Virus record (IMG/VR): IMGVR_UViG_2698536552_000015
Reading direction: 5' to 3' (one strand)
DNA from: a virus
Taxonomy: Duplodnaviria > Heunggongvirae > Uroviricota > Caudoviricetes
Length of the DNA stretch: 14,019 bases
Shown one piece after another: positions 1 through 14,019 of this stretch. The number at the start of each line of letters is the position of its first letter. The first letter of the stretch is position 1. Under the pieces are notes generated by a model. It saw only the letters and a program-made list of their open reading frames with translations, was not told the origin of the DNA and searched no databases. Made by a program: the position numbers and the translations under genes.

Positions 1-1236
1 CTACGATAACCGCGCATTCAACATGGCTACCTGTTCGTCGTTCATGTCATCAATCCACATACCGTAAATTTCATACACCATCTGCGCAGTTTCATGCCCC
101 ATCTGGCTGGCTATAAACGCCGGGTTCGCTCCTGCCGTCAACAGCCAGCAGGCAAAAGTATGCCGCGTATGGTACGGATTACGGCGGCGAATACCAGCAC
201 GTTTTACTGCTGCATTCCATCTCGCACCCAAACTGCTTACCGAGTAATAAGGTTTCTGTTTTCCGTTACACACTCTGGGCATGAAAACAAAATGCAGTTT
301 TTGCTTTTCGGTTCTGCCGTACTCCCGATGATAAAAAGTGATTTCGCTTTTGCGATGATGCCCGGTCAGTTTGTATTGCTCCTTCAGTGCTTCAAGAGCA
401 GGCTGCAGTAGTGTTACCGTCCGGATCCCCGCATTTGTTTTTGGGGGACCGAACATATCCAGTATCGTCAGGTTTCTTCTGACATTCACAACTCCCTTCT
501 CGAAATCCACATCCTCCCACGCCAGAGCAGCCAGTTCCCCGTGACGAAGCCCGGAGTATACGGCAAATTTCCACAAGTTCTGGCTCTGTCCTTTTTCACT
601 TTCCATTAATGCATTGAATTCTGTTTTAGATAACGGGTCAGGCTTTATTCTGTTTCTCTGTAATTTCTTTACTCCTTCAAATGGTTTGGTTGATATAAAT
701 CCCGACTGATACGCAAAACGTAACAACGAACAGAGCAGGGCGATATAGTTATCAACTGTGCGCACGGTTCTTCCTTTTTTGTTGGATCTTGGATTATCCA
801 GGTAAAGCGTTTCTCCATGCAGCAGTTCATTCCGGTAGTTTAAGATATCGCTATAACGAATATGCGATATCGGAGTACTCTCACAAATTATTATCCTGAG
901 TGTTTTTAATTGTGATTTCGTTTTCTTCATTGTGTTTGTTGTTAACTCTGTTTCTTTAATTTTTGTCCAGATATCACAAAGCTCCCCGAACGTTTTTATG
1001 ACCCTCGTTGTCACCATTTTTGCCCCAGTGCTGGACTGGGGAAAACGTCTTAAATACTCAAACTCACCGGAATTGATTTCATGAACTATCAACGCTCTTA
1101 AATTCCCGGCTTTTTTAATGTTACTGTTAGTAACCTCCCAGCCTTTCAATGTTTCCCGACATCGTTTTCCTCGAAACATGAACCAGATGCGAATGTATTT
1201 ACCTCGAATCTCGACACCTGTTGGTAATTTAGACAT
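1..1236 (-). CDS. intR: Rac-type prophage tyrosine integrase (411 aa), complete; stop codon is the first three bases of the window
   Basis: ORF track 1..1236 (-). Protein begins MSKLPTGVEIRGKYIRIWFMFRGKRCRETLKGW and ends in a tyrosine-recombinase C-terminal region (…NPYHTRHTFACWLLTAGANPAFIASQMGHETAQMVYEIY). Matches IntR of Rac as recalled. xis stop lies 1 nt upstream. Confidence 0.95.
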   Translation of the reverse strand: MSKLPTGVEIRGKYIRIWFMFRGKRCRETLKGWEVTNSNIKKAGNLRALIVHEINSGEFEYLRRFPQSSTGAKMVTTRVIKTFGELCDIWTKIKETELTTNTMKKTKSQLKTLRIIICESTPISHIRYSDILNYRNELLHGETLYLDNPRSNKKGRTVRTVDNYIALLCSLLRFAYQSGFISTKPFEGVKKLQRNRIKPDPLSKTEFNALMESEKGQSQNLWKFAVYSGLRHGELAALAWEDVDFEKGVVNVRRNLTILDMFGPPKTNAGIRTVTLLQPALEALKEQYKLTGHHRKSEITFYHREYGRTEKQKLHFVFMPRVCNGKQKPYYSVSSLGARWNAAVKRAGIRRRNPYHTRHTFACWLLTAGANPAFIASQMGHETAQMVYEIYGMWIDDMNDEQVAMLNARLS

Positions 1237-1237
1237 A

Positions 1238-1453
1238 TCATGAGTCTTTGATAAACTGATTTATCTTTGGATAGTTATACCAGATAATCCCTCGCTTACT
1301 GTCTGGCTTCCCTAAAGGAGATACTCGTTTGAAGTGGAAGCCTTCCACCCAACAGTTCTGGCGGTATGCTTCAATTTGTCTGGCCCCCAGACCAGTGCGA
1401 AGCATCAGGCCGTATTCAACCATCCACTCTTCATTAAAGATTACTTGTGCCAT
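1238..1453 (-). CDS. xisR: Excisionase-like protein (71 aa)
   Basis: In-frame ATG at 1453 within ORF 1238..1477 gives [71 protein letters not shown], which I recall as YdaQ/XisR. Sits immediately upstream of int (xis-int arrangement). The longer start at 1477 is possible. Confidence 0.85.
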
Positions 1454-1552
1454 CGCATCACCTCTGGCAGGCGCCAATGTTAGACTTAAATTGACGCCCG
1501 ATGTTGATTATTAATAATCAGCTATGAAGTTTTAATTTGAATACAATGCAAT

Positions 1553-1741
1553 TCACGAGGACTGAAGTTTCTCGCAATTAAAATTTATCAGTTTTACTTT
1601 CTGCTCTCTGGAAACGCCTGCTTCTTTTTTACCTGAGAGCATTTTTTCGCATTCTGATTTCGTTAGTTTAGATTTTGAATATCTTGTCCAGTTAGTAGGA
1701 GTGCCACCTTCCTTTTCAATAGTGGCGGTAATTTTATACAT
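1553..1741 (-). CDS. ydaC: Small Rac prophage protein YdaC/RcbA-like (62 aa)
   Basis: ATG at 1741 (MYKITATIEKEGGTPTNWTRYSKSKLTKSECEKMLSGKKEAGVSREQKVKLINFNCEKLQSS) inside ORF 1553..1813. The start overlaps the 3' end of the ralR frame by 8 nt. Confidence 0.7.
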   Translation of the reverse strand: MYKITATIEKEGGTPTNWTRYSKSKLTKSECEKMLSGKKEAGVSREQKVKLINFNCEKLQSS

Positions 1742-1928
1742 GAACACCTCCATTATTATTTCCAGTGGTTCGTTTATTTCATCGTTCGAGTGCTTCTTTT
1801 TCACTTCCACCATAACCGGTTCGGGATTCGCATCCGTTACACTTCGCTCGGTAATATCCTGAAATGGCTTTCACCGTTACTGATGGACAACCACAAAATG
1901 GACATGGTTTAACATTGTCATATCTCAT
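1734..1928 (-). pseudogene. ralR: ralR-like gene (restriction alleviation / type I toxin) with an in-frame TGA at codon 50; 49-aa product if terminated, 64 codons if read through
   Basis: Hand translation of the minus strand from ATG 1926-1928: MRYDNVKPCPFCGCPSVTVKAISGYYRAKCNGCESRTGYGGSEKEALER, then TGA (plus 1779-1781), then in frame NKRTTGNNNGGVHV and TAA at 1734-1736. Absent from the ORF track because it is under 60 aa. The in-frame tail matches the RalR C-terminus as I recall it. Confidence 0.55.
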
Positions 1929-1956
1929 AATTTTTCTCATAAAAATATTTCAAGTT

Positions 1957-1975
1957 GGCGGTGCATTACACCGCC
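1957..1975. other. Perfect 7-bp inverted repeat GGCGGTG-catta-CACCGCC between the recT stop and ralR start
   Basis: Read directly from the sequence. On the minus strand the U-rich tract starts about 9 nt after the stem, so this is not a canonical intrinsic terminator. Confidence 0.3.
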
Positions 1976-1983
1976 AGGCTGAA

Positions 1984-2793
1984 TTATTCCTCTGAATTAT
2001 CGATTACACTGTATTCCCCGGTTAATACAGAGGAATCTGCAGGATCGATTGTCAGTGGTTCCTTTTCATCCATTGATACTGCACGCTGGATCTCAATTGA
2101 TACGGGCAGATATTTGAACAGGCGACGAATAGCCGTTTTCTTTGCCATTTCTTCCCAGTGAGTTACCCACGGCCCGTTATTACCAGCTTTACTCTGGCTG
2201 CGCACCAGCTCAATCTGTTTGCGCGTCATAACTTCAAACTGAGTACCTCCGTCTTTCAGTCTTGCGACAGCATAGACGTGGGTAACAGGGGCATCTTCGT
2301 TTTCTCCTGGGCGGTGTATTAACTTTTCATCAAGGCCAAATTCGAAATTAAACTCGTCACCTTCACGGACAACACGGGCTGACAGGCTGGCGATTTGACC
2401 TGAACGGCGAGCCAGATCAATCATGCCGCGATAGCCAATGATTAGCTGAACGTTTTTTTTACCGCTCTTTTCGTTTTTATTACCAAAAGGCAGTAAATAT
2501 GCATGACCGAGGGCGCTACCGGGCTCAAGTCCGAGCTGTGAACACTGTACGATTGCACTGACAAAACTCATAGTGTCACAGTTTCCTAACGCCGGAACTT
2601 TACGAATTTCTGTGGTGGCGATACGGATCATACGTTCAGCCGTCATATGGCGTGGAAGAGCTGCTGCCAGTTGCTCTTTCATTGATGGCTGGTTAATAAA
2701 ACTAATCACGTCGTTATTTTTAATTGCTGCTGGTGCACGGTTTCCCTGAGTTTTTTGCAGATCGGCTTTTGCGATTGGTGGTTGCTTAGTCAT
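1984..2793 (-). CDS. recT: RecT single-strand annealing recombinase (269 aa)
   Basis: ORF 1984..2850; internal ATG at 2793 gives [41 protein letters not shown]…SVIDNSEE, recognised as RecT. AAGGAA Shine-Dalgarno 7 nt upstream. The start overlaps the recE stop by 8 nt. Confidence 0.95.
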
Positions 2794-5386
2794 TTGCATA
2801 TTCCTTAGCCCAGCGGGGCAGTGATAACGTCTTAATAGCTGGCCATTCATCGGTATTGAGGCAGTCAGCCAGGGTTCGCAGATTGCGGTGATATTCCAGC
2901 TGACCTGCCAGTTTTGCTTCTTCGCCCATCATGAAAATTTCAACCGGATAACGTCCGCATTCAATAGTTGTGCTGGCAACCAGAAAAACGAAAGTTGGCT
3001 GCACTCCAAACTGTGCTTCATAACCGTCACTGTAGAATGCATCCTGAACGTGATAGCGGTAGTCGTAATAAGCGGTTTTGAATCGTTGAATATCCGCCGT
3101 AGTTTTCACGTCCATGATCCAGTGAAATTCAGGGATAATTTTGTCCGGACGGCACCGACACAAAATTGCTGTTTCAGGATCTTCCCAGTAAATTGATGAT
3201 TCAGCGTGTCCGGCGCTTTCAACAAGCCATTGCCCCAGCGGCAAAGCCATAACGCTCTGATACATGAGTTCAATTTTCCGGCCTTCTTCGGCAGTGATAA
3301 CCGTTTTTCCTGTGCTTGCGCATTCCCTCAGAAACGCTTTCTCTTCTTCTTTTCCGGAGTTTGTCCGGCGGTTAAATTCAGGTGCTACGATAAAGCGGTT
3401 ACTGAATTCTTCCGGCTCAAGTACCCGGCAGTGGAAAGCGGTTCCTAAATCGAGCGTTTTTGTCTTTGTGGTGTCCACGGGGGCATTTTTACGCCACAAA
3501 TACAGTGCCGGAGTATCAGCAATGTCATCGAGCTGAGACTTACTGACACCGGGACCCGCGTGGTAATTCTCATTCGAAATTCCGTAATAAATACCTGGCT
3601 CTATGTCTTCTACGATTACGGGATCTGCGACTTCGCCAGTTTCATCACTGCAATCGCGATGCGGATCGCTGCCAGCATTCTCATTGTGCGGATGTTCAGC
3701 GCCTTCCATTTCCTCCGGATCATTTTCCTTAGCTTCAACCTGACTCTCTTCATCGAATGTTTCCTGGTATGTTGCGTCGCCCATCACCGCACCACAGTCA
3801 GGGCAGTTATCCCCGCCAGTCTGGCCGCAGGCATTGCAGGCTATTTCCGGTTCCTGTTGCACTACTGGCTCAGGTTGATTCATATCCGGGCTGGTTTTTT
3901 CCGTTTCTGGCTGGTTCTGGTACACACAATCGCGAGTCTGGATCCCCTTTACCCATTTCGGATCGTTCGGGTCGCTAATTCCGTCAACAAATTCACCACG
4001 TGATGCAGCAAGCAATTTATCGGCATCGACAGGATTTTTTGATGGAATGTTTTTCCGGGCTTCATGGAGTTCTGCCCGCAGTTCCTGATATTTCGCATCA
4101 ACAGAATTTACCTGTGACTGAGCATCCAGCGGCTGCGTGTCCTGATGATGTTCAGTTGCGTCCGGTTCCATTGTTTCAGCCTCTCCCTGTTCAACTGCCG
4201 TTGTTCCAGATGGTTGCGGTTTTTCTTCATCATCCTGTTTTCCTTCTTCTGTTACTCGCTGCGGCATCGGGGCAGAGGAGCGACCGCAGGCAATATCCAC
4301 GATTTCCGGATCAGGGTTGGCATGATCGGTTTCAGTCAGTACTTTGTTCAGATATTCAGTGACGTGCGCGGGGATGACCTCGATCCCAATTGGTGCTTCT
4401 TTTACGGACGCAACCACGATGGCGCGGGAATAATCCAGCCCGCCAGGCATGGTGATGAATTTGTCGCGGAAAACAGAAAAGGGCGGTTTATTTTCAGCGA
4501 TAATTTCCTCAATGCGTTTAGCGTGTGCCGGATGAAGGTTATAGATGTCCAGATCCATTGAACGGGCCAGTACGCCAGTGGCTACGTCCCGCGCCAGTGA
4601 CGTCAGATCGTGTACGAAACCTTCGCCGCGATCGGTGAGGTTTCCGCCGCCAGCATTAGCACCGGAAGCCGTGCGAGTGATGTGTGAAACACGATTACCC
4701 TTCATCCACTCTTTTGTCAGCAGTCCTCGATCGGTGTAGTCAGCGTTCAGGTATGCTTCGAAAAAAGCAGTTATCAGTCCCAGGTTTGAATTACCAGGAT
4801 TAGGGAAAACTTTGTCAGTGTCACGAACCAGTTTGTGGAGTTCGCGAATTTCCAGCGGGTCGAGCAGGCTGGTTTTGTGGGAAACAGCCAGGGCAGTAAC
4901 AGCCGGTAGTTCTTCAGCCCGAGCAATGTGTAATGCCTGGAGTCCGTCGCGTGAAACGTGCGTTACCGGTTTTTCGCTGCCGTGTTGAGCAAGCCAACGA
5001 ATGGGCAGTTCCTGGCCAGAAATTGGGAGTAGCATATTCTCCTCAATCTCAGTCATGTCTTCGCCGTTGACGTTGGTATTGCCTTGATAGTGAGCGTTGT
5101 CTGGTGCTGCTCCCGGTTTTAGTTCCCATGTCATGGAGTCTTTGCTGAGTTGATAGCGTTCACTCCAGGTAAAATCGATCTCACCTTCAGCGGGCAGGTC
5201 ATTAACGACAGGAAAATTCGTGGCAACAGCTTTAAAATAGCTGCTCAGTTTTTTACCTGACTTAACGATCAGGTAGTCCAGAGTGGCACAGGTCGATTCA
5301 AAATCGTTGCTTGCCCACAGGACGACGTCAGGTTCACCGGATGATTTTTTCGCTTTCCGTAACAGGAAGAGTGGTTTTGTGCTCAT
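2786..5386 (-). CDS. recE: Exodeoxyribonuclease VIII RecE (866 aa)
   Basis: ORF track 2786..5386 (-), 866 aa, [33 protein letters not shown]… with an acidic low-complexity middle and a C-terminal nuclease domain. Matches RecE of Rac in length and sequence as recalled. Confidence 0.95.
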
Positions 5387-5459
5387 TGTTTTTTAACCTC
5401 AACTCAGATTAAAATTCGTTTTGTTCAGTGAATGATCTTGCCGGATACACACTGTTCAT

Positions 5460-5480
5460 AGCCTGCGCCATACGCAGGCT
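5460..5480. other. 8-bp perfect inverted repeat AGCCTGCG-ccata-CGCAGGCT in the racC-recE intergenic region
   Basis: Read directly from the sequence. Lies 7 nt downstream of the racC stop on the minus-strand transcript and is followed on the plus strand by ATTTCTTTCA. Candidate RNA stem-loop or weak terminator. Confidence 0.3.
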
Positions 5481-5487
5481 ATTTCTT

Positions 5488-5763
5488 TCAGATTTCACCT
5501 TTTAATTTCATTGCAATTAGAGTTGCCAGAAATTCGGCTTTTTTTTCTGCGGGCAGATTCTTTCCGATATGCACCAGGCACATTTTTTTGACACCTTCAT
5601 CAAGTGTTTTTACGTTGCCTGATGGACCATCGATATCAACCACAGTGAATGGGGTTTCTTTATTTTCTGTTTTAATTACGTAGCCAATGCGCTTTCCTTC
5701 CAGATTCACCTCGTGAACAATGTCATCGGTAGTTACAACAGTGGCTTCATAATTGGTAATCAT
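5488..5763 (-). CDS. racC: Rac prophage protein RacC (91 aa)
   Basis: Internal ATG at 5763 in ORF 5488..5811 gives MITNYEATVVTTDDIVHEVNLEGKRIGYVIKTENKETPF…KLKGEI. AAGGAGAAA Shine-Dalgarno upstream. Confidence 0.85.
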   Translation of the reverse strand: MITNYEATVVTTDDIVHEVNLEGKRIGYVIKTENKETPFTVVDIDGPSGNVKTLDEGVKKMCLVHIGKNLPAEKKAEFLATLIAMKLKGEI

Positions 5764-5837
5764 GTTTTTCTCCTTAATTAAGGTTGAGCGAATACCTGCC
5801 ATTTCTGGCATAAATTCAGTTTCGAATAGTCAATTAA

Positions 5838-6008
5838 TTAAAGTTCATGTGCCATCTGGTCTTTTTCGGCACAAGCTTCACTGCAATATTTTCTCGGTTC
5901 GTCTTTTGATAAAATCCCGTGCATGAAGTGAAGCATTCTTTCAATAGCTTTGCTTTCTTCAACGTCTTTTTTGCAAAGGTGGTAAGCACATTTTATTTTC
6001 TTAGTCAT
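5838..6008 (-). CDS. ydaE: Small Cys-rich protein YdaE (56 aa)
   Basis: Hand-translated minus-strand [59 protein letters not shown]. Not in the ORF track (under 60 aa). Its ATG overlaps the kilR stop as ATGA. Confidence 0.75.
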   Translation of the reverse strand: MTKKIKCAYHLCKKDVEESKAIERMLHFMHGILSKDEPRKYCSEACAEKDQMAHEL

Positions 6009-6229
6009 CACCATGACTCCGCCTTTACAGGTAAACCATCACGACCGAGGAAGACTTTAATCATGCGGTCAGTAATGCATGTTTTTGTGGTCAGGTTACG
6101 AATATATAGTTTTCGCTTTTTAATATTGTTTGCCGAGGCAATATATGTCCGGCCTTCATGAAGAACATAATCGCCAGGAGTCACACACTGACGTGGTATT
6201 TCATCAGTTCCGAAGTGATGTGCAATCAT
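6008..6229 (-). CDS. kilR: Killing protein KilR, FtsZ-targeting cell-division inhibitor (73 aa)
   Basis: ATG at 6229 in ORF 6008..6241 gives [77 protein letters not shown] Shine-Dalgarno 6 nt upstream. Confidence 0.85.
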
Positions 6230-6410
6230 AATTATCTCCATTTTTACAAATGAACTTTGTTGATGCGGTGCCTGGTGCCTCCAGGTGACTGCAACCAGTT
6301 AACAATTACAGTCGGCTTTCCCACCCAAACCAATAAGGACTAACATGACTTTTAACTGTGCCACGTGCGCTTAGCCGCATTCACCGCATCACAAAATTCA
6401 CTTTAAAAAG

Positions 6411-6452
6411 GGCGGACATCAGCCGAACTTCAAGAAAAAAACTGATGCCGCC
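6411..6452. promoter_or_regulatory. Imperfect inverted repeat GGCGGACATCAG-N19-CTGATGCCGCC in the kilR/sieB divergent intergenic region
   Basis: Read directly: arms at 6411-6422 and 6442-6452 are complementary apart from a 1-nt bulge. Candidate protein-binding site or RNA structure near the presumed early-left promoter. Confidence 0.3.
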
Positions 6453-6670
6453 AGGACTACACACAGCAATGTCGTTATTTACAACCGGAGGCGCACTCCC
6501 ACCATTTAAATTTAACAGACAAGACCGACTCTTTATGGATATCGGAAATGCGCCTTCGTGTTGTGCCCGGTTTTATTTCACCACCTCCGGGCTTCGGTGG
6601 TCTCGGCTATACCCCTACAGCGAGAGCTTGTGTTAACATTTCAATACCCTTACAGTTGAGAGTTATTGAT

Positions 6671-7159
6671 ATGTTGGATGTATTTACTCCATTGTTGAAA
6701 CTTTTTGCTAACGAGCCACTCGAAATACTTATGTATACGATTATCATTTTTGGTCTCACTCTCTGGCTGATACCGAAAGAGTTTACTGTCGCATTCAATG
6801 CTTATACTGAAATACCTTGGCTCTTTCAGATTATCGTTTTTGCCTTTTCTTTCGTGGTCGCCATTTCCTTCTCAAGATTGCGAGCACATATTCAAAAGCA
6901 TTATTCATTACTACCAGAGCAACGAGTATTGCTTCGTTTATCTGAGAAAGAAATCGCTGTATTTAAAGATTTCCTTAAAACAGGAAATCTTATTATCACT
7001 TCTCCTTGCCGTAACCCGGTTATGAAAAAATTAGAACGGAAGGGCATCATTCAACATCAGAGTGATAGCGCAAACTGTTCTTATTATCTCGTCACCGAAA
7101 AATACTCCCATTTTATGAAGTTATTCTGGAACAGCAGGAGTAGACGTTTTAATCGTTAG
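6671..7159 (+). CDS. sieB: Superinfection exclusion protein SieB (162 aa), membrane protein
   Basis: ATG at 6671 in ORF 6548..7159 gives MLDVFTPLLKLFANEPLEILMYTIIIFGLTLWLIPKEF… with hydrophobic N-terminal segments. Matches SieB as recalled. Confidence 0.85.
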   Translation: MLDVFTPLLKLFANEPLEILMYTIIIFGLTLWLIPKEFTVAFNAYTEIPWLFQIIVFAFSFVVAISFSRLRAHIQKHYSLLPEQRVLLRLSEKEIAVFKDFLKTGNLIITSPCRNPVMKKLERKGIIQHQSDSANCSYYLVTEKYSHFMKLFWNSRSRRFNR

Positions 7160-7311
7160 CTTACTGTGTGCTTCTCCAACCATCGGCGCGCACCAGTTTC
7201 GGTTTTAAATGTTTTGCTTTTGGTATACGTCATGGCAGTGAACGTTCCATCCTGGTTGGGGAACACGCCGCACACCAGGGATTCGTTGTTGCCGAGGTCG
7301 ATTTTTTGCAT
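7156..7311 (-). CDS. ydaF: Small protein YdaF-like (51 aa)
   Basis: Hand-translated minus-strand ORF MQKIDLGNNESLVCGVFPNQDGTFTAMTYTKSKTFKTETGARRWLEKHTVS (ATG 7309-7311, TAA 7156-7158). Not in the ORF track. Its 3' end overlaps the sieB stop convergently by 4 nt. Assignment to ydaF rests on length and position. Confidence 0.55.
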   Translation of the reverse strand: MQKIDLGNNESLVCGVFPNQDGTFTAMTYTKSKTFKTETGARRWLEKHTVS

Positions 7312-7321
7312 TTTGCGAATC

Positions 7322-7456
7322 TCACATCTTGTTGCTGTGTATAGCGACTTCTGCCTGCCAGAGATCCCAGTCGTTGCTGCGTAAAGCCTGCACAGCCTGG
7401 TTGTAAGTGATACCGCAACAATCCATCAAATACTGAACTACTTCGTAATGCACCAT
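7322..7456 (-). CDS. ydaG: Small protein YdaG-like (44 aa)
   Basis: Internal ATG at 7456 in ORF 7322..7504 gives MVHYEVVQYLMDCCGITYNQAVQALRSNDWDLWQAEVAIHSNKM. GGGGAGAG Shine-Dalgarno 6 nt upstream. Confidence 0.6.
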   Translation of the reverse strand: MVHYEVVQYLMDCCGITYNQAVQALRSNDWDLWQAEVAIHSNKM

Positions 7457-7624
7457 CTTATCTCTCCCCTTAACGCCGGGTGGCGGAACTGAAACCTGCT
7501 GCACTGCAAAATCTGAACCCTGCCGTCATGTTCATACGCCTCGGGCTGGCTACTTAACCCCTGACCACTGCCTGGTAACTCGAAGTATTGCCCTGCGTTC
7601 TGTGGGGCGGGGTGGGTTGGTAGG

Positions 7625-7680
7625 TATATAATGTACTTTGTGTTCATTGATGTAAAGTACTATAAGTACATTTTGTGTGT
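7625..7680. promoter_or_regulatory. Cluster of GTAC-core repeats with promoter-like hexamers downstream of the racR stop; candidate operator/promoter region (OL-like)
   Basis: Plus-strand TATATAAT at 7625-7632; ATGTACT at 7631-7637; AAGTACT at 7655-7661; AGTACAT at 7665-7671; TTTGTGT follows two of the copies. On the minus strand, TTTACA-N17/19-CATTAT/TTATAT could drive ydaG-ydaF. Confidence 0.3.
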
Positions 7681-7746
7681 AAAAAAATGAGATGGGATAA
7701 AGTGAAGCACAAACCCGGAGGGGGACGCTACCGGATTTATGCTGGT

Positions 7747-8184
7747 TTAAGAGGCTTTTTGTTTTTTCTTTCGTGCTAGCTCTTCGTAAATTGCATTGTA
7801 CTTCTGTTTTTTCTCCTCAAGAGTTTTTAAAAGTTCATCTGTCTCACTGTCAGGGAGCTCGTCCAGAAGGTCAATGATGATTTTTTGTCTTGGATTTAAC
7901 TCCTGATAGAAACGTACCTGTCCACTTTCTTCTGTATCCTCTCCCAAAAGATAGGTTGGTGTTGTTCCAATGAGTGTTGCTAATTCCCTTAATTTCTCTC
8001 GGCGAGGAATTGTTTCGCCATTAAACCATTTGCTAACCGCTTTTGGTGTTAATTTCATTCGACGGGCAATTTCTGCCTGCCTTCCATGTTGTTCATAACC
8101 AGCGTTTTCACAGGCTAGCGCAAGCCTACTGGCGAACTCTTTACGCGCTTTATCTTCATGAACCATAAGTTCAATGATATTCAC
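7747..8184 (-). CDS. racR: Prophage repressor RacR (XRE/cI-type helix-turn-helix), 145 aa from GTG 8184 or 139 aa from ATG 8166
   Basis: ORF 7747..8184: MNIIELMVHEDKARKEFASRLALACENAGYEQHGRQAEIARRMKLTPKAVSKWFNGETIPRREKLRELATLIG… (HTH), acidic/basic C-terminus. No clear Shine-Dalgarno, consistent with a short-leader or leaderless repressor mRNA. Confidence 0.85.
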   Translation of the reverse strand: MNIIELMVHEDKARKEFASRLALACENAGYEQHGRQAEIARRMKLTPKAVSKWFNGETIPRREKLRELATLIGTTPTYLLGEDTEESGQVRFYQELNPRQKIIIDLLDELPDSETDELLKTLEEKKQKYNAIYEELARKKKQKAS

Positions 8185-8186
8185 TC

Positions 8187-8221
8187 TTGAATGTACTGTC
8201 AGTTCTGTTATAGCATGTACT
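8187..8221 (+). promoter_or_regulatory. Candidate ydaS promoter (TTGAAT-N16-TATAGC) flanked by two direct ATGTACT repeats; putative RacR operator region (OR-like)
   Basis: -35 TTGAAT at 8187-8192, -10 TATAGC at 8209-8214, ATGTACT at 8191-8197 and 8215-8221. Lies between divergent racR and ydaS. Confidence 0.4.
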
Positions 8222-8245
8222 CAAAGTTCACATTGTGAGGGTGAT

Positions 8246-8500
8246 ATGAACCAGAAAACACTTGAAGATGTAATCAAAACTGTTCGCGTTTCTGTTGTGG
8301 CCGACGTTTGTGGTGTCAGCCAAAGAGCAATCTACAAATGGATGGATAACGGAAAATTGCCTCGCACAGAATATACCGGCGAAACAAATTACGCTGAAAA
8401 AATCGCTCATGCATCAAACGGATTATTTTCTGCTGATGTAATTTTAACTATTGGCAGAAATAAAACTACTACGAAAAAGCTGATGGGAGTTGATTCATGA
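8246..8500 (+). CDS. ydaS: Cro-like helix-turn-helix protein YdaS (84 aa)
   Basis: ATG at 8246 preceded by GAGG gives MNQKTLEDVIKTVRVSVVADVCGVSQRAIYKWMDNGKLPRTEY… with an HTH motif. Divergent from racR. Its stop overlaps the ydaT start as ATGA. Confidence 0.8.
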   Translation: MNQKTLEDVIKTVRVSVVADVCGVSQRAIYKWMDNGKLPRTEYTGETNYAEKIAHASNGLFSADVILTIGRNKTTTKKLMGVDS

Positions 8501-8919
8501 AAATCAAGCATGAGCACATCGAGTCAGTGTTGTTAGCCCTGGCAGCCGAAAAAGGGCAGGCATGGGTAGCCAATGCCATTACTGAAGAATATCTGCGCCA
8601 GGGGGGCGGCGAATTGCCCCTGGTACCAGGCAAGGACTGGAATAATCAGCAGAATATCTATCACCGTTGGTTGAAAGGTGAAACGAAAACGCAAAGAGAA
8701 AAAATTCAGAAGCTGATCCCAGCAATTCTGGCAATCCTTCCGCGCGAGCTGCGTCACCGACTCTGCATCNNNNNNNNNNNNNNNNNNNNNNNNNNNNNNN
8801 NNNNNNNNNNNNNNNNNNNNNNNNNNNNNNNNNNNNNNNNNNNNNNNNNNNNNNNNNNNNNNNNNNNNNNNNNNNNNNNNNNNNNNNNNNNNNNNNNNNN
8901 NNNNNNNNNNNNNNNNNNN
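8497..8919 (+). CDS. ydaT: YdaT-like protein; N-terminal 91 codons visible (8497..8769), 3' end hidden in an N run (end inferred from a recalled length of about 140 aa)
   Basis: MKIKHEHIESVLLALAAEKGQAWVANAITEEYLRQGGGELPLVPGKDWNNQQNIYHRWLKGETKTQREKIQKLIPAILAILPRELRHRLCI then N run. GGGAG Shine-Dalgarno upstream. Confidence 0.7.
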
Positions 8920-9030
8920 NNNNNNNNNNNNNNNNNNNNNNNNNNNNNNNNNNNNNNNNNNNNNNNNNNNNNNNNNNNNNNNNNNNNNNNNNNNNNNNNN
9001 NNNNNNNNNNNNNNNNNNNNNNNNNNNNNN
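8770..9030. other. N-masked run (261 nt), no sequence information
   Basis: Run of n in the input; hides the ydaT 3' end and ydaU 5' end. Confidence 0.99.
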
Positions 9031-9814
9031 TACCTGGCTGACACCATGCATTTGTCAGCAGAGGAGCATGGTGCGTATTTGTTGCTGATGTTCAATTACT
9101 GGCAAACAGGAAAGCCAATACCTAAAAACAGGCTGGCAAAAATTGCCCGTCTGACTAACGAGCGATGGGCTGATGTTGAACCATCCTTGCAGGAGTTTTT
9201 TTGCGATAACGGCGAGGAATGGGTGCATCTTCGGATTGAGGAAGATCTGGCATCANNNNNNNNNNNNNNNNNNNNNNNNNNNNNNNNNNNNNNNNNNNNN
9301 NNNNNNNNNNNNNNNNNNNNNNNNNNNNNNNNNNNNNNNNNNNNNNNNNNNNNNNNNNNNNNNNNNNNNNNNNNNNNNNNNNNNNNNNNNNNNNNNNNNN
9401 NNNNNNNNNNNNNNNNNNNNNNNNNNNNNNNNNNNNNNNNNNNNNNNNNNNNNNNNNNNNNNNNNNNNNNNNNNNNNNNNNNNNNNNNNNNNNNNNNNNN
9501 NNNNNAAAAAGTTTGACCCTCTGGATATTGCTTTGCCGAACTGGATTTCTGTCTCGCTTTGGCGTGAGTGGGTTGAATTTCGCCAGGCATTGCGAAAACC
9601 GATTCGAACGGAGCAGGGCGCTAACGGGGCGATACGGGAGCTGGAAAAATTCCGCCAGCAGGGTTTTTCACCTGAGCAGGTGATTCGACACAGCATCGCC
9701 AATGAATACCAGGGCTTGTTCGCGCCGAAAGGTGTTCGACCTGAGACGTTACTCCGACAGGTTAACACCGTCTCGTTACCGGATAGTGCGATCCCGCCAG
9801 GCTTCAGGGGGTAA
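8957..9814 (+). CDS. ydaU: DUF1376-type replication-associated protein YdaU-like; start inferred inside an N run, interrupted by a second N run
   Basis: Visible segments: 9031-9255 YLADTMHLSAEEHGAYLLLMFNYWQTGKPIPKNRLAKIARLTNERWADVEPSLQEFFCDNGEEWVHLRIEEDLAS (DUF1376-like motif), and 9506-9814 KKFDPLDIALPNWISVSLWREWVEFRQALRKPIRTEQGANGAIRELEKFRQQGFSPEQVIRHSIANEYQGLF…PPGFRG*. The two segments are in different frames (+1 across the 250-nt N run). Confidence 0.65.
9256..9505. other. N-masked run (250 nt)
   Basis: Run of n in the input, inside ydaU. Confidence 0.99.
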
Positions 9815-9820
9815 CTGACC

Positions 9821-11022
9821 ATGAAAAATATTGCGACAGGCGACGTTCTTGAACGTATCCGCAGACTGGCCCCGTCACATGTAACCGCGCCATTCAAGAC
9901 GGTAGCGGAGTGGCGCGAGTGGCAACTTTCCGAAGGCCAGAAACGTTGTGAGGAGATCAACCGTCAGAATCGTCAGTTGCGGGTGGAAAAAATTCTGAAT
10001 CGCTCTGGCATCCAGCCATTGCACCGCAAATGCTCGTTTTCGAATTACCAGGTGCAGAACGAAGCGCAGCGATACGCGTTGAGTCAGGCGAAATCCATCG
10101 CTGATGAACTGATGACCGGGTGTACAAATTTTGCGTTCAGCGGAAAACCTGGTACCGGGAAGAACCACTTAGCGGCAGCTATCGGGAATCGCCTGCTGAA
10201 AGACGGTCAGACAGTGATTGTGGTTACCGTGGCTGATGTTATGAGTGNNNNNNNNNNNNNNNNNNNNNNNNNNNNNNNNNNNNNNNNNNNNNNNNNNNNN
10301 NNNNNNNNNNNNNNNNNNNNNNNNNNNNNNNNNNNNNNNNNNNNNNNNNNNNNNNNNNNNNNNNNNNNNNNNNNNNNNNNNNNNNNNNNNNNNNNNNNNN
10401 NNNNNNNNNNNNNNNNNNNNNNNNNNNNNNNNNNNNNNNNNNNNNNNNNNNNNNNNNNNNNNNNNNNNNNNNNNNNNNNNNNNNNNNNNNNNNNNNNNNN
10501 NGAACGACGGCCAGCGATACGCGTTAAGCCAGGCGAAATCCATCGCCGATGAACNNNNNNNNNNNNNNNNNNNNNNNNNNNNNNNNNNNNNNNNNNNNNN
10601 NNNNNNNNNNNNNNNNNNNNNNNNNNNNNNNNNNNNNNNNNNNNNNNNNNNNNNNNNNNNNNNNNNNNNNNNNNNNNNNNNNNNNNNNNNNNNNNNNNNN
10701 NNNNNNNNNNNNNNNNNNNNNNNNNNNNNNNNNNNNNNNNNNNNNNNNNNNNNNNNNNNNNNNNNNNNNNNNNNNNNNNNNNNNNNNNNNNNNNNNNNNN
10801 NNNNNNNNNNNNNNNNNNNNGGTGGTGCTGCACCAGATTGTTGATCGCCGGACAGCGTCGATGCGCAGCGTGGGGATGCTGACAAACCTGAACTATGAGG
10901 TGATGAAAACATTGCTCGGCGAGCGGGTGATGGATCGCATGGTCATGAACGGCGGGCGCTGGGTGAATTTTAACTGGGAGAGCTGGCGTCCGAATGTTAG
11001 CCATTCGAGGGTTGTTAAGTAG
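9821..11022 (+). CDS. ydaV: DnaC-like replication/helicase-loader protein YdaV region with an AAA+ Walker A motif; about 450 nt longer than expected and containing a diverged second copy of an internal segment (one enlarged gene, or a 5' fragment plus a second full copy)
   Basis: N-terminal 142 codons visible (9821-10246): MKNIATGDVLERIRRLAPSHVTAPFKTVAEW…FSGKPGTGKNHLAAAIGNRLLKDGQTVIVVTVADVMS. C-terminal segment 10822-11022: VVLHQIVDRRTASMRSVGMLTNLNYEVMKTLLGERVMDRMVMNGGRWVNFNWESWRPNVSHSRVVK*. The island 10502-10554 repeats residues around 79-96. Frames differ between segments (2, 3, 1). Confidence 0.7.
10248..10501. other. N-masked run (254 nt)
   Basis: Run of n in the input, inside the ydaV region. 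Confidence 0.99.
10555..10820. other. N-masked run (266 nt)
   Basis: Run of n in the input, inside the ydaV region. Confidence 0.99.
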
Positions 11023-11036
11023 TTTCAGGAGGATTT

Positions 11037-11459
11037 ATGGCGAAACCTTTTACTCCCGAACAGCGGGAAGAACTGAAGACGCGAATTGTGGAACTCGTGC
11101 ATCAGGACGGTCGGGTCACGATTCGGCAGTTGTCAGATGAAACAGGTATCAGTCGTGCGTCTGTCGGTCGCTTATGCATAGAACTGGTCGCAAGTGGTGA
11201 TGTATATAATTCTGGCTACGGCTTATTCCCGTCTGAACAGGCTCGCAAGGACTGGCAAAGCGCCCGCAAAAAACTCTCGAGAGTAAAGGTGAGGAAACCG
11301 GTTGTTGTTGATCCGGACCTTATCTGGTCATTACCTGACGGAGAAATACGCCGCTACGACAGGCGCCTGAATATAATCTGTCGCGAGTGCCGGAAGAGCG
11401 AAGCTATGCAGCGTGTACTGGCTTTCTATCAGGGTAATTTTCAGGAGGCGATACTGTGA
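11037..11459 (+). CDS. Hypothetical prophage protein (140 aa) with a predicted N-terminal winged helix-turn-helix
   Basis: ORF track 11037..11459; AGGAGG Shine-Dalgarno 4 nt upstream. The segment VTIRQLSDETGISRASVGRLCIELVASGDV looks like an HTH; a single CxxC (CRECRK) lies in the C-terminal half. Family not recognised with confidence. Confidence 0.6.
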   Translation: MAKPFTPEQREELKTRIVELVHQDGRVTIRQLSDETGISRASVGRLCIELVASGDVYNSGYGLFPSEQARKDWQSARKKLSRVKVRKPVVVDPDLIWSLPDGEIRRYDRRLNIICRECRKSEAMQRVLAFYQGNFQEAIL

Positions 11460-11516
11460 ATGAAATTAGCTATCAGGCTTCAATTACCGCTGGCATTCGC
11501 ATCAAAGGAGAGGAGC

Positions 11517-11873
11517 ATGGAAATAAAACCAGAAGATGAGTTAAGCAATATCGTTTTATTTCCGGTAAAAGAGGATGACCCTCGTAATCAGGTTAATTTT
11601 CTTTATGAGCCATCGGAAAGACCATATTGCCATCACGCCTCTGTACGGGTTGACGAAAAAGAGCGTCAGGTCCGCTGTAAAATCTGCGGTGCGGTTGTGG
11701 AGCCGTTTGACTGGATGCTCTCTGTGGCAAAAAGAGAAACCAGACTGGCAGATGATGTAAGGCTATTGCGCCAGGAGGAACAGGAAAGGCGGAGAAATAT
11801 AGAAAAGCTGATACAGATTGAGCGTAACGCGAAAGCGCGGATACGCAGGGCGACAAAATCCAGAACTGAATAA
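11517..11873 (+). CDS. Hypothetical small protein (118 aa) with a C-x15-CxxC zinc-ribbon-like motif and a basic coiled-coil tail; alternative start at 11460 (137 aa)
   Basis: ORF 11460..11873; internal ATG at 11517 has a strong AAGGAG Shine-Dalgarno with a 6-nt spacer. Motif YCHHASVRVDEKERQVRCKICG; C-terminus RLLRQEEQERRRNIEKLIQIERNAKARIRRATKSRTE. Confidence 0.55.
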   Translation: MEIKPEDELSNIVLFPVKEDDPRNQVNFLYEPSERPYCHHASVRVDEKERQVRCKICGAVVEPFDWMLSVAKRETRLADDVRLLRQEEQERRRNIEKLIQIERNAKARIRRATKSRTE

Positions 11874-12020
11874 TTAAATTTAGCACTGTTAAAAATTTAA
11901 TCCTTAACCGGAGGGATTTCTGCACCCTCAAATCATCAGGAGACCACCCGAAAGGGCGGGGAGCAGTCACACATCTGTTTCCGATAGCCCCGTTCTAATG
12001 CTACACTCTTTGATATTTTT

Positions 12021-12707
12021 ATGACCCCAATAAACATATTTATGACAGTTGCTGATTTCAAACGGCCCAAATTGGAGCTCCCAAACGGGGCAAACAAACT
12101 ACTACTGCACTCTTGCTGTGCTCCATGTTCCGGTGAGGTGATGGAGGCGCTTCAGGCCTCGGGAATCGACTACACCATCTTTTTCTACAACCCGAACATT
12201 CATCCTCAGAAAGAGTATTTAATTCGTAAGGATGAGAATATTCGCTTTGCTGAACAACACGGCGTGCCGTTTATTGATGCTGATTACGACACAGACAACT
12301 GGTTTGAACGAGCCAAAGGAATGGAATGGGAGCCCGAACGAGGGATCCGTTGCACCATGTGTTTTGACATGCGTTTTGAGCGGACAGCGCTGTACGCCGC
12401 TGAAAATGGTTTCAGTGTGATCAGCAGTTCACTGGGCATTTCACGCTGGAAAAATATGCAGCAGGTTAACGACTGTGGGCGGCGAGCCGTCGCGCATTAT
12501 CCGGGCATGGTGTACTGGGATTATAACTGGCGCAAGCAGGGCGGCTCGTCCCGTATGATTGAAATCAGCAAGCGCGAAAAATTCTATCAGCAGGAATATT
12601 GTGGCTGTGTGTATTCTCTGCGCGATACCAATCTACACCGCAAATCTCAGGGACGCCCTCTTATCAAAATTGGTCAACTCCACTACGGTAAAGAAGAGAA
12701 GGAGTGA
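12021..12707 (+). CDS. queH: QueH-like epoxyqueuosine reductase (DUF208 family), 228 aa
   Basis: ORF track 12021..12707. Motifs as I recall for QueH/DUF208: [23 protein letters not shown], and C-terminal YCGCVYSL. No obvious Shine-Dalgarno; the true start may be the ATG at 12042. Confidence 0.65.
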
Positions 12708-12728
12708 TTTTATGGGGCACCTTTCTGA

Positions 12729-12758
12729 TTGATTTCATATTGGCGAGGTAAGTAGAAT
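12729..12758 (+). promoter_or_regulatory. Candidate sigma70 promoter of the hok/mok mRNA (TTGATT-N18-TAGAAT)
   Basis: -35 at 12729-12734, -10 at 12753-12758. The predicted start site (about 12762-12765) coincides with the 5' element that is complementary to the mRNA 3' end. Confidence 0.4.
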
Positions 12759-12819
12759 GACTGCGGGTGCTTGAGGCTATCTGCTTCAGGCATGAACACC
12801 AAAAGGCAGATAGAGAAAA

Positions 12820-12886
12820 GCCCCAGTTAACATTACGCGTCCGGCAAGACGCTTAACATTAATCTGAGGCCAATTTCATGCTTTGC
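12820..12886 (-). ncRNA. Candidate Sok-like antisense RNA overlapping the mok translation start (coordinates approximate)
   Basis: Minus-strand promoter-like hexamers TTGCCT (complement of 12916-12921), 17-nt spacer, TAACCT (complement of 12893-12898). Position relative to mok/hok matches the known hok/sok organisation. The 3' end is not defined. Confidence 0.25.
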
Positions 12887-13090
12887 ACATGTAGGTTAGC
12901 CTCTTACATGCCGAAAGGCAAGGAGAAGCAGGCTATGAAGCAGCAAAAGGCGATGTTAATCGCCCTGATCGTCATCTGTTTAACCGTCATAGTGACGGCA
13001 CTGGTAACGAGGAAAGACCTCTGTGAGGTACGAATCCGAACCGGCCAGACGGAGGTCGCTGTCTTCGTAGACTACGAATCCAGGAAGTAA
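12878..13090 (+). CDS. Mok-like reading frame (70 aa): in-frame N-terminal extension of hok, as in mokC/hokC
   Basis: ATG at 12878 in the same frame as hok (MLCTCRLASYMPKGKEKQA + Hok), the same arrangement as the chromosomal mokC/hokC pair as recalled. Confidence 0.5.
   Translation: MLCTCRLASYMPKGKEKQAMKQQKAMLIALIVICLTVIVTALVTRKDLCEVRIRTGQTEVAVFVDYESRK
12935..13090 (+). CDS. Hok/Gef-family type I toxin (51 aa), HokC/HokD-like membrane peptide
   Basis: MKQQKAMLIALIVICLTVIVTALVTRKDLCEVRIRTGQTEVAVFVDYESRK carries the family signature LVTRKDLCEV-IRTGQTEVAVF. AAGGAGAAG Shine-Dalgarno upstream. Confidence 0.9.
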   Translation: MKQQKAMLIALIVICLTVIVTALVTRKDLCEVRIRTGQTEVAVFVDYESRK

Positions 13091-13098
13091 GAGTGACC

Positions 13099-13126
13099 GG
13101 GCGGGGAGCTGATCCCATCCCCGCCC
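13099..13126 (+). other. Perfect 9-bp GC-rich stem-loop (GGGCGGGGA-N10-TCCCCGCCC) 9 nt after the hok stop
   Basis: Read directly from the sequence; part of the structured hok mRNA 3' region. Confidence 0.5.
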
Positions 13127-13166
13127 ACCTCTGATGTGTCAGGCATCCTCAACGCACCCGCACTTA

Positions 13167-13216
13167 ACCCGCCCATCGCTGTGATCTCTCAGCGTTTCGG
13201 CGGGTTTTTTGTTGTT
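13167..13216 (+). terminator. Rho-independent terminator of the hok transcript
   Basis: Outer stem ACCCGCC/GGCGGGT (13167-13173, 13199-13205) with inner stem CGCTG/CAGCG, followed by TTTTTTGTTGTTT. Confidence 0.55.
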
Positions 13217-13230
13217 TATTTCCGGTGAAT

Positions 13231-13258
13231 TTGATTCGCGCACCTTCGCAGATAGAAT
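13231..13258 (+). promoter_or_regulatory. Candidate sigma70 promoter for the downstream small-gene operon (TTGATT-N16-TAGAAT)
   Basis: -35 at 13231-13236, -10 at 13253-13258; same hexamers as the candidate hok promoter. Confidence 0.35.
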
Positions 13259-13339
13259 CGACTCACTTAAGTAGCGCGCAGGGAGAAGAGGGATGGACCC
13301 CGAACAGGGGAGAGCTATTTATCTGGAAGGATTCTGAAG

Positions 13340-13627
13340 ATGAAAATCGAAGAATTGCGTGAAATTTTTAGTGAAAATGGCCTCTATGCTGTGCGCGTTG
13401 AGAATGGAGCGATTGTCAGCCATTGCCGCATTAGATGTTTGCAATCTCAACAAAGGAAGAGCGGTGCTGTGTTATTTTATTTTTGTAATGGACTTCTGAC
13501 GGACGGTTTTATTTTGCGTGAGGACGAATTTGTCACATCATTACGGGTTTTGAAAGAGATTGGTTTTAAGGCTGGTTTTCTGCTTTTGCTGAAGAATAAA
13601 CTCATCTACAATCTTGAGCAGGATTGA
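13340..13627 (+). CDS. Hypothetical protein (95 aa)
   Basis: ORF track 13340..13627; GGAAGG 9 nt upstream of the ATG; stop overlaps the next ORF. No family recognised. Confidence 0.45.
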   Translation: MKIEELREIFSENGLYAVRVENGAIVSHCRIRCLQSQQRKSGAVLFYFCNGLLTDGFILREDEFVTSLRVLKEIGFKAGFLLLLKNKLIYNLEQD

Positions 13628-13665
13628 ACTCCTGCTGTGTAACACCGTGCCACCGGAGAAAGCCG

Positions 13666-14019
13666 ATGGCACATATACAACTGGTCAAACAAACCTCTTC
13701 CGGATTACTTCTCCCGGCGACGCCGGAGAGTTGCGATTTTCTGCATCAAATCAAAATAGGTGAGTGGATACACGCAGACTTTAAGCGTGTGTGTAACTAC
13801 GCATTCCACAAGCGTTTTTTCAAACTCCTGCAACTGGGTTTCGATTACTGGACTCCGGTCGGTGGGGCGATCACGCCTCGCGAACGAAAACTGGTGTCCG
13901 GTTTCGTTGATTACCTGTGTGAATCAGTAGGCCGGGAACATACGCCAGCTCTGAGCGAAGCCGCAGAGCAATTGAGGTGTACTGGCAATAGCGGACACTA
14001 CCATTTGTTCTTTTTTTAA
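13666..14019 (+). CDS. Conserved lambdoid nin-region-like hypothetical protein (117 aa from ATG 13666); stop codon is the last three bases of the window
   Basis: ORF 13624..14019 starts at a TTG; the ATG at 13666 has a GGAGAAAG Shine-Dalgarno and gives MAHIQLVKQTSSGLLLPATPESCDFLHQIKIGEWIHADFKRV…. Resembles prophage proteins I associate with a DUF family of nin regions, but I cannot name the family reliably. Confidence 0.55.
   Translation: MAHIQLVKQTSSGLLLPATPESCDFLHQIKIGEWIHADFKRVCNYAFHKRFFKLLQLGFDYWTPVGGAITPRERKLVSGFVDYLCESVGREHTPALSEAAEQLRCTGNSGHYHLFFF

Follow-up and report, generated by a model that had tools for sequence, protein, structure and literature searches.

The stretch of DNA analysed here (14,019 nucleotides, called the window below) begins as a Rac prophage and ends with genes, among them queH and a hok/mok locus, that do not match the Rac prophage of E. 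coli K-12. An earlier note read this as lambdoid mosaicism, in the form of a Rac-family prophage with a swapped accessory/nin module. The question raised by the locus is whether the two arms belong to one prophage at all and, if not, how they came to stand side by side.

Comparison with the Rac prophage of K-12

When the whole 14,019-nt window was aligned to the Rac prophage of MG1655, positions 1-7622 matched with 98.7% identity over the series intR-xisR-ralR/RalA-recT-recE-racC-ydaE-kilR-sieB-ydaF-ydaG, which includes the recET-ralR/RalA-kilR-sieB left arm by which Rac is recognized (RalA, at 1557-1735, scores 225 bits in Rfam). The integrase gene intR occupies positions 1-1236 and is also 98.7% identical to that of K-12. 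The window edge is the intR stop codon, hence ttcA, where the cryptic K-12 Rac is integrated, falls outside the window. In the loci that are at least 99.97% identical to the window's left arm (L021, L023 and L024), intR leads to ttcA and dbpA; this context and the identity of intR place the integrase and excisionase with those of Rac at ttcA. Positions 7623-8490 are unmatched and hold an immunity region of a different type, whose genes are not racR/ydaS of K-12 and match the type of E. coli 2009C-3133. Similarity resumes at 8491-8769 (97.8%), 9031-9255 (100%) and 9506-10247 (the 5' part of ydaV, 99.6%), ydaT, ydaU and this part of ydaV being 98-100% identical wherever the window has bases, and it returns for the last time at 10821-10997 (95.5%).

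From 10998 to 14019 the whole-window alignment gives no match to MG1655 Rac. The earlier note gave ydaW, rzpR/rzoR and trkG as the genes that follow ydaV in K-12 Rac, which is correct, and its claim that the window departs from K-12 Rac after ydaV is borne out, none of the genes in question having appeared in K-12 Rac. The divergence is real, but its position has to be revised: K-12 similarity ends at 10997, within ydaV, and not at 11037, while the switch of alleles lies in the N-gapped interval 10248-10820.

Four runs of N (8770-9030, 9256-9505, 10248-10501 and 10555-10820) interrupt the window, which is therefore not a continuous sequence. Against the real sequence of contigs L007 and L012, 261 N stand for 252 nucleotides, 250 for 234 and 266 for 256. 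With these discrepancies of 9-16 nucleotides, the N runs behave like gap-size estimates made in scaffolding.

Genes of the right arm

The open reading frames 3' of ydaV all lie on the + strand. The first (11037-11459), in the position of lambda ren, encodes a winged-helix DUF977 protein (Pfam PF06163, 1e-33; HTH_24) that matches PHROG 142 (3e-44), whose label, 'Ren-like exclusion protein', is an annotation name only. It is followed by a 118-amino-acid ORF (11517-11873; frame open from 11460, 137 amino acids), annotated as hypothetical in E. coli FDAARGOS_944 and in EC21GDE043. Its product, a putative zinc ribbon with a basic, possibly coiled-coil tail, matches PHROG 1621 (3e-56, function unknown) and, weakly and under the cutoff, Zn_Ribbon_TF. 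Next comes queH (12042-12707, frame from 12021), an accessory, or moron, gene for a predicted epoxyqueuosine reductase (Pfam PF02677, 2e-65). The hok/mok/sok locus (12765-13090, Rfam RF01794) comprises the sok region (12765-12940; 117 bits, gathering score 59) and a mok frame (12878-13090) overlapping hok (12935-13090; Pfam PF01848, 1e-22, 79.9 bits), an arrangement that predicts a type I toxin-antitoxin system. Downstream lie a rem homologue of 95 amino acids (13340-13627; PF27490, PHROG 340; function unknown) and the 5' half of a YbcN-type DUF1367 gene in the NinB position (13666-13972; Pfam PF07105, 1e-46, profile positions 1-102 of 198). This gene is cut by IS600, an element of the IS3 family, whose terminal 47 bases (13973-14019), the only ones within the window, match the ends of annotated IS600 elements; positions 13972-14019 agree at every base with the end of the 1266-bp IS600 in L006 and L012, which identifies the element. 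The resulting DUF1367/IS600 fusion ORF reaches 14019; the uncut DUF1367 gene of FDAARGOS_944 is 600 bp long. The right arm thus has the genes that the earlier note listed: two small genes, queH, hok/mok and nin-like genes.

The order of genes in phage lambda is O-P-ren-nin. The right arm belongs with such lambdoid ren-nin regions, as it lies 3' of replication genes, shares their strand and contains small accessory genes. By PHROG names, the likeness to lambda extends to the replication genes, the gene in the ren position, the small accessory genes and the gene in the NinB position; DUF1367 also matches PHROG 319, labelled 'NinB/Orf homologous recombination mediator', and its likeness to NinB is by that label alone. 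Q is absent from the window because IS600 cuts in. Both lambda and the K-12 prophages differ in being without queH. Two of the products have counterparts in the Qin prophage of K-12, HokD with 90% identity to Hok and Rem with 68% to the Rem homologue (E 2e-34), whereas relBE is absent from the window.

The K-12-unlike part of the window is thus ordinary, well-known phage gene content. That 11037-13627 would be cargo with strain-specific functions is contradicted by queH, which 1147 of the 5426 complete E. coli genomes have, and by the hokD and rem homologues of K-12 Qin. PADLOC, run on the six right-arm ORFs, gave no defence-system match and two sub-threshold HTH matches only. Promoter and terminator scans returned sites no more numerous than in shuffled sequence, and nothing was concluded from them. 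GC content shows only a modest drop, at rem (0.39-0.41).

K-12 Rac is a deletion derivative

E. coli 2009C-3133 carries at ttcA a Rac prophage without deletion, with the order ydaV-DUF1627-DUF977-queH-hokD-DUF1367-DUF1364-Q-lysis-trkG. K-12 Rac aligns to this locus (L004) as far as position 16496 and then again from 22391. The 5.9 kb missing from K-12 extend from mid-ydaW to mid-Rz, removing the 3' part of the one and the 5' part of the other and fusing ydaW to Rz at a 2-nt 'TA' microhomology; the lost stretch contains DUF977, queH, hokD, DUF1367, DUF1364, DUF1133 (Q), tRNAs, essD and rrrD. K-12 Rac is a deletion derivative. CP-933R/Sp10 of O157:H7 are likewise undeleted Rac-family prophages at ttcA (PMC4632033, PMC6379469). 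Since queH, hok and nin-type genes are normal in undeleted Rac at ttcA, their presence is not a swap relative to Rac, and the notion of an exchanged accessory/nin module falls. The frame of reference has to be turned round: the deleted form is K-12 Rac, and Rac-family prophages ordinarily have queH-hok-nin-Q-lysis as their right arm. The contrast between the window and K-12 has a known cause that is separate from the join, namely this microhomology deletion of the equivalent DUF977-queH-hok-nin-Q-lysis genes.

Like the window, the 2009C-3133 prophage has DUF977, queH, hokD and DUF1367 after ydaV, continuing there into DUF1364, Q, lysis genes and trkG. However, DUF1627 (full-length ydaW) separates its ydaV from DUF977, and the 118-amino-acid ORF and rem are missing at these positions. 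The stretches that it shares with the window are 86-95% identical, as against 100% for a prophage remnant at mod-gal.

Two probable parent prophages

The Rac loci at ttcA of L021, L023 and L024 match positions 1-10247 with 99.97-100% identity. Two of them, L021 and L024, have an entire Rac-type ydaV that continues into DUF1627-DUF977-340aa-333aa-TehB-like and further genes, up to Q; most of ydaV is absent from L023, whose downstream arm is the same. Positions 10502-10554 and 10821-14019 have matches of 100% identity in closed or near-closed genomes, among them those of S. sonnei 2015C-3566 (CP022457.1) and 75/02 (CP019689) (PMC6456863, PMC5447701). The 75/02 genome, listed as complete, was closed with SSPACE and SPAdes. 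In the closed S. sonnei genomes, a 4.4-kb segment with a complete remnant-type ydaV lies between two direct IS600 copies (4663-5928 and 10307-11572 in L012) and abuts int'-modCBA-galETK. This mod-gal context was seen at the seven places displayed, out of a set with 14 similar ones besides, and all the megabase-scale contigs displayed put the queH arm there.

The same genes occur in intact form in a lambdoid prophage at ybhA/modC (E. coli FDAARGOS_943/944), which is 99.9% identical to positions 10821-13972, the IS600-decayed S. sonnei remnant being 100% identical. Prophage and remnant share with the window the order ydaV-DUF977-118aa-queH-hokD-rem-DUF1367. They part at DUF1367, which is cut by IS600 in S. 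sonnei and in the window, whereas in FDAARGOS_944 it is intact and followed by DUF1364, DUF1133 (Q-type), tRNAs, lysis and head genes.

Three considerations, namely the mod-gal location, the DUF1627 continuation of the matching Rac loci and an out-of-register ydaV across N gaps, argue that region 11037-14019 is not Rac. It and the Rac left arm would physically lie in different prophages, contrary to what the earlier note supposed when it gave the right arm to a Rac-family prophage.

Several searches bear on the contig context of this segment. The junction ORF falls on contigs of 2-5 kb in 440 of 521 blocks, and the 4386-nt IMG/VR contig L005 has the size of the IS600-bounded segment. We do not take this contig class as proof of the mod-gal context, as it is suggestive only: breaks in a repeated ydaV give similar sizes. 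The DUF1367::IS600 junction had no exact match in a scan of genome contigs, perhaps because that set has one genome per species; the same pattern occurs in three IMG/VR contigs. In the phage collection, any one record covers 47% of the right arm at most.

The join in ydaV

The last Rac left-arm sequence of the window is formed by nucleotides 1-427 of a Rac-type ydaV, which encodes a DnaC/IstB-like replication ATPase (9821-10247, + strand); it is 99.6% identical to K-12 ydaV, 100% identical to the Rac ydaV of L021 and Rac-type at 28 of 28 informative SNP sites. Beyond the 254 N (10248-10501) at which the two prophages are joined, there is a 53-nt island (10502-10554, + strand) that maps to nucleotides 237-289 of the remnant allele and is absent from the Rac allele (100% identical to closed S. 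sonnei L012 6847-6899, 90.6% to K-12). The Rac-type form of this stretch stands earlier, at about 10057-10109, and the island is a second copy of it, out of order. A further 266 N (10555-10820) stand for remnant-type nucleotides 290-545 (256 nt), and the gene ends with nucleotides 546-747 (10821-11022, + strand), which are 100% identical to L012 and L009, 95.5-96% to the Rac alleles and remnant-type at 19 of 19 informative sites; the product terminates in ...NVSHSRVVK, versus ...NVVQPGIAK in K-12. The ydaV of the window is thus two out-of-register partial genes and not a single hybrid gene, and homologous recombination, as judged from the order of the pieces, could not produce it.

We infer that the window is a scaffold of an S. 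sonnei-type short-read draft in which two lambdoid prophages were joined via their paralogous ydaV genes, the join being most likely, at about 80%, a scaffolding artefact. The left half (1-10247) would be the left arm of Rac at ttcA. The right half (10502-14019) would represent the 4.4-kb segment at mod-gal, which belongs to another lambdoid prophage, decayed by IS elements; a draft assembly would have stitched the two together through the shared gene, inside the N-gapped interval. The presence of both prophages in one genome is suggested by two drafts, L011 and L015, in which the Rac left arm, the queH segment and the Rac right arm occur together.

Four assemblies join the same halves at four different points. 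Besides the window, these are L007, a contig without gaps whose hybrid ydaV is intact and in frame and crosses over at nucleotides 345-426; L011, which crosses over at nucleotides 483-626, has a gap-free left join and also carries a second, complete Rac-type ydaU-ydaV-Rac right arm; and L015, which has IS600 at the join. Both L011 and L015 show N gaps at joins within truncated IS600 copies. The gap-free hybrid of L007 and the gap-free left join of L011 run counter to the reading of the join as an artefact.

Seamless hybrid ORFs such as those of L007 and L011 would be expected if a genuine Rac-family prophage had exchanged its right arm, by homologous recombination within ydaV, for another lambdoid ren-nin region. 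The identity between the two alleles is about 93%, and the tracts of 80-142 nt in which they do not differ could support such an exchange, which is typical of lambdoid phages; one example is EC21GDE043, where a prophage at another site has a racR-ydaV identical to that of K-12. We nevertheless consider it unlikely. The window holds out-of-register pieces across N gaps, and a crossover that differs from one assembly to the next is not expected of a single inherited event in a clonal species. In addition, L011 retains a complete Rac ydaV and Rac right arm, the displayed megabase-scale contigs have the arm at mod-gal, and none of the 5426 complete E. coli genomes has the hybrid arrangement, scored as a single place that covers 80% or more of the window. 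Lambdoid prophages are indeed mosaic, as the earlier note had it, but the link between Rac and the queH arm is made here only across N gaps. Were a Rac/remnant recombinant present in some S. sonnei strains, it would entail a chromosomal rearrangement between ttcA and mod-gal.

The two direct IS600 copies that flank the segment in closed genomes raise another explanation, that in some strains it entered the Rac ydaV through IS600-mediated recombination or moved there like a composite transposon; L015 does read Rac ydaV 5'-IS600-segment-IS600-Rac ydaV 3'. This is very improbable. Both L015 joins cross N gaps within IS600, and its ydaV pieces (5' to about nucleotide 600-645, 3' from about nucleotide 346) overlap by some 250-300 nt, which argues against transfer by an IS3-family element, for which a 3-bp target duplication is expected; moreover, no IS600 stands between the two ydaV parts of the window. 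That the N runs mask real sequence, in a genome with a true partial tandem duplication of ydaV, is hardly credible and was dropped: masked stretches can read as N, and the 53-nt island does follow the first ydaV copy as a second one, but masks would preserve length, which is off at three places relative to otherwise 100%-identical relatives, and N gaps recur at the equivalent joins of related drafts.

Scaffolding chimeras of two prophages can form through shared replication genes and IS copies, and prophage 'mosaics' should be read with this in mind when they come from drafts of poly-lysogenic genomes rich in IS elements, like those of Shigella.

queH as a candidate lysogenic-conversion gene

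The role of a prophage-borne queH is perhaps the sole new biological question raised by this locus. Among the papers searched, none on prophage- or Rac-borne queH dealt with it as a lysogenic-conversion gene, and a search on irsA gave nothing relevant. We tentatively propose that it might be a working gene of this kind, by which the last step of queuosine synthesis would be freed from the cobalamin-dependent host QueG; if so, prophage queH would alter translation under B12 scarcity. Its product belongs to the QueH family, matching PF02677 over profile positions 1-174 of 175 (220.6 bits, cutoff 23.5) and retaining, in alignment with T. maritima QueH (7LC5), the cysteine motifs HxCCAP (CC..C), CxxC and CGC.

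Relationship to the Rac prophage of K-12

When the whole window was aligned to the Rac region of E. coli MG1655, the segment from intR to ydaG (1-7622) showed 98.7% identity, and ydaT, ydaU and the 5' part of ydaV (8491-8769, 9031-9255 and 9506-10247) 97.8-100%. A short stretch at 10821-10997 is 95.5% identical and nothing aligns over 10998-14019. The right-arm difference reported in the earlier note is thus genuine, and K-12 does carry ydaW, rzpR/rzoR and trkG downstream of ydaV, as stated there. The interpretation offered, a Rac prophage with a swapped right arm, fares less well: a known deletion in K-12 and a probable assembly chimera account for the difference.

The immunity region (7623-8490) has no match in MG1655 Rac. 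The repressor/Cro-like pair of the E. coli 2009C-3133 Rac prophage (a 139-residue HTH protein and an 84-residue ORF) matches it at 98.3% identity. Because this region is unlike K-12 racR/ydaS, even the Rac portion of the window is mosaic with respect to K-12, at a place on which the earlier note is silent. The left part also holds the RalA antitoxin sRNA of the ralR/RalA type I toxin-antitoxin system (1557-1735; 225 bits, full Rfam model). The sieB ORF (6548-7159) encodes 203 amino acids, as in loci L018, L021, L023 and L025, versus 162 as annotated in K-12, L019, L020, L022 and L024.

The 2009C-3133 Rac prophage, which sits at ttcA, has an undeleted right arm: ydaV, DUF1627 (full-length ydaW), DUF977, queH, hokD, DUF1367 and DUF1364, then DUF1133 (Q-type), tRNAs, essD, rrrD, Rz, trkG and ynaK. 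The K-12 alignment stops at position 16496 of this locus and restarts at 22391 (14202/14203 on the K-12 side). K-12 has thus cleanly lost 5,894 bp by a deletion that begins in mid-ydaW and ends at the start of Rz. The junction shows a TA microhomology and fuses ydaW (DUF1627) to Rz (rzpR); this arrangement is present in 337 of 5426 complete genomes. Reviews describe K-12 Rac as incomplete, with only the leftmost ~8 kb common to Rac-like prophages (PMC6379469, PMC4632033). Among the same complete E. coli genomes, 1147 of 5426 carry prophage-borne queH (95-99% identity), nearly always in single copy. Given this frequency and the 2009C-3133 right arm, queH, hok and the nin-type genes belong to the usual gene complement of the Rac family and are not the swapped-in module with strain-specific cargo that had been proposed.

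Two prophages probably mis-joined at ydaV

We consider the window to be, with a probability of about 0.8, a mis-scaffold in which two prophages from a single S. sonnei-type genome were joined via their ydaV genes, the two alleles of which are 93% identical. The left arm (1-10247) is 99.97-100% identical to Rac prophages at ttcA in three loci (L021, L023, L024). L021 and L024 each have a complete, Rac-type ydaV, with DUF1627, DUF977, two large ORFs, a TehB-like gene, DUF1367, YbcO and Q downstream.

The right arm leads elsewhere. The ORF created by fusion of DUF1367 to IS600 is unique and is carried by 521 blocks of public assemblies; on every megabase-scale contig among the matches listed, it adjoins int'-modCBA-acrZ-modEF-galETK. 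These placements include CP022457.1 (S. sonnei 2015C-3566) and CP019689 (75/02; organism names from PMC6456863 and PMC5447701). There, the right arm has its own complete ydaV and lies between two direct IS600 copies ~4.38 kb apart (4663-5928 and 10307-11572 in the closed S. sonnei locus L012). From 10502 on, N runs aside, the window matches this segment at 100% identity. The second IS600 copy, 4.38 kb upstream, gives the queH-hok segment a composite-element layout. The only complete E. coli genomes with a good right-arm match (99.9%) are FDAARGOS_943 and 944, where the arm lies in a different lambdoid prophage. That prophage sits at ybhA/modC, and its left arm is just 85-93% like that of the window.

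Four N runs (8770-9030, 9256-9505, 10248-10501 and 10555-10820) interrupt ydaT-ydaU-ydaV, so that ORFs called across them, such as 9821-10552 and 10549-11022, are meaningless. Compared with the true sequence, taken from 100%-identical relatives, three differ in length by 9-16 nt (261 vs 252, 250 vs 234, 266 vs 256). They thus look like scaffold gap-size estimates; masks would keep length.

Typing at the 50 sites that separate the two ydaV alleles gave, in order, Rac-type nucleotides 1-427, 254 N, remnant-type (mod-gal prophage) nucleotides 237-289, 266 N and remnant-type nucleotides 546-747. The window thus holds two partial ydaV genes, out of register, which rules out a single homologous crossover as their source. 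That a true recombinant of Rac and the mod-gal remnant exists in some strains is unlikely, even with the gap-free hybrid ydaV genes of two other assemblies in its favor: the crossover lies between nucleotides 345 and 426 in L007 and between 483 and 626 in L011. The L011 contig additionally has another ydaU-ydaV, complete and of Rac type, that leads into the Rac right arm. In a third assembly, L015, the halves are linked via IS600, so that each of the three joins the same two halves differently from the window and from the others; L011 and L015 have N gaps at joins within truncated IS600 copies.

Gene content of the right arm

All gene calls of the earlier note for this arm stand, on ORF, Pfam/Rfam/PHROGs and protein comparisons. 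A DUF977 winged-helix protein (11037-11459; "Ren-like" in PHROGs) is followed by a 118-residue ORF of no assigned function with a weak zinc-ribbon match (11517-11873), QueH (12042-12707), whose cysteine motifs align with those of the solved T. maritima enzyme, and hok/mok (12765-13090), with an Rfam sok match and a Hok 90% identical to HokD of K-12 Qin. Then come a Rem homologue (13340-13627; 68% identity to K-12 Qin Rem) and the 5' half of a DUF1367 gene (13666-13972), cut after codon 102 by the IS600 end that forms the final 47 bases (13973-14019). This content is common and has been annotated before.

From these families, the right arm would be the distal portion of a decayed lambdoid prophage's early-right operon, lying downstream of the replication genes and upstream of a Q gene lost here to IS600. 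It would encode a DNA-binding protein in the Ren position and small genes without assigned function, with queH and hok/mok/sok as two putative self-contained accessory units. The queH product would carry out a cobalamin-independent reduction of epoxyqueuosine to queuosine in tRNA, and hok/mok/sok is a predicted post-segregational killer. A search of the right-arm genes for defence systems gave no match, and our literature search found no paper on a role for prophage queH in lysogens.

A clear and genuine case in which prophages have exchanged the Rac immunity and replication module is that of E. coli EC21GDE043 (NZ_CP099721.1, 2010569-2036063). In this lambdoid prophage, which adjoins tRNA-Ser/mtfA, the racR-ydaS-ydaT-ydaU-ydaV proteins are identical to those of K-12 Rac, whereas the integrase, exonuclease and right arm differ.
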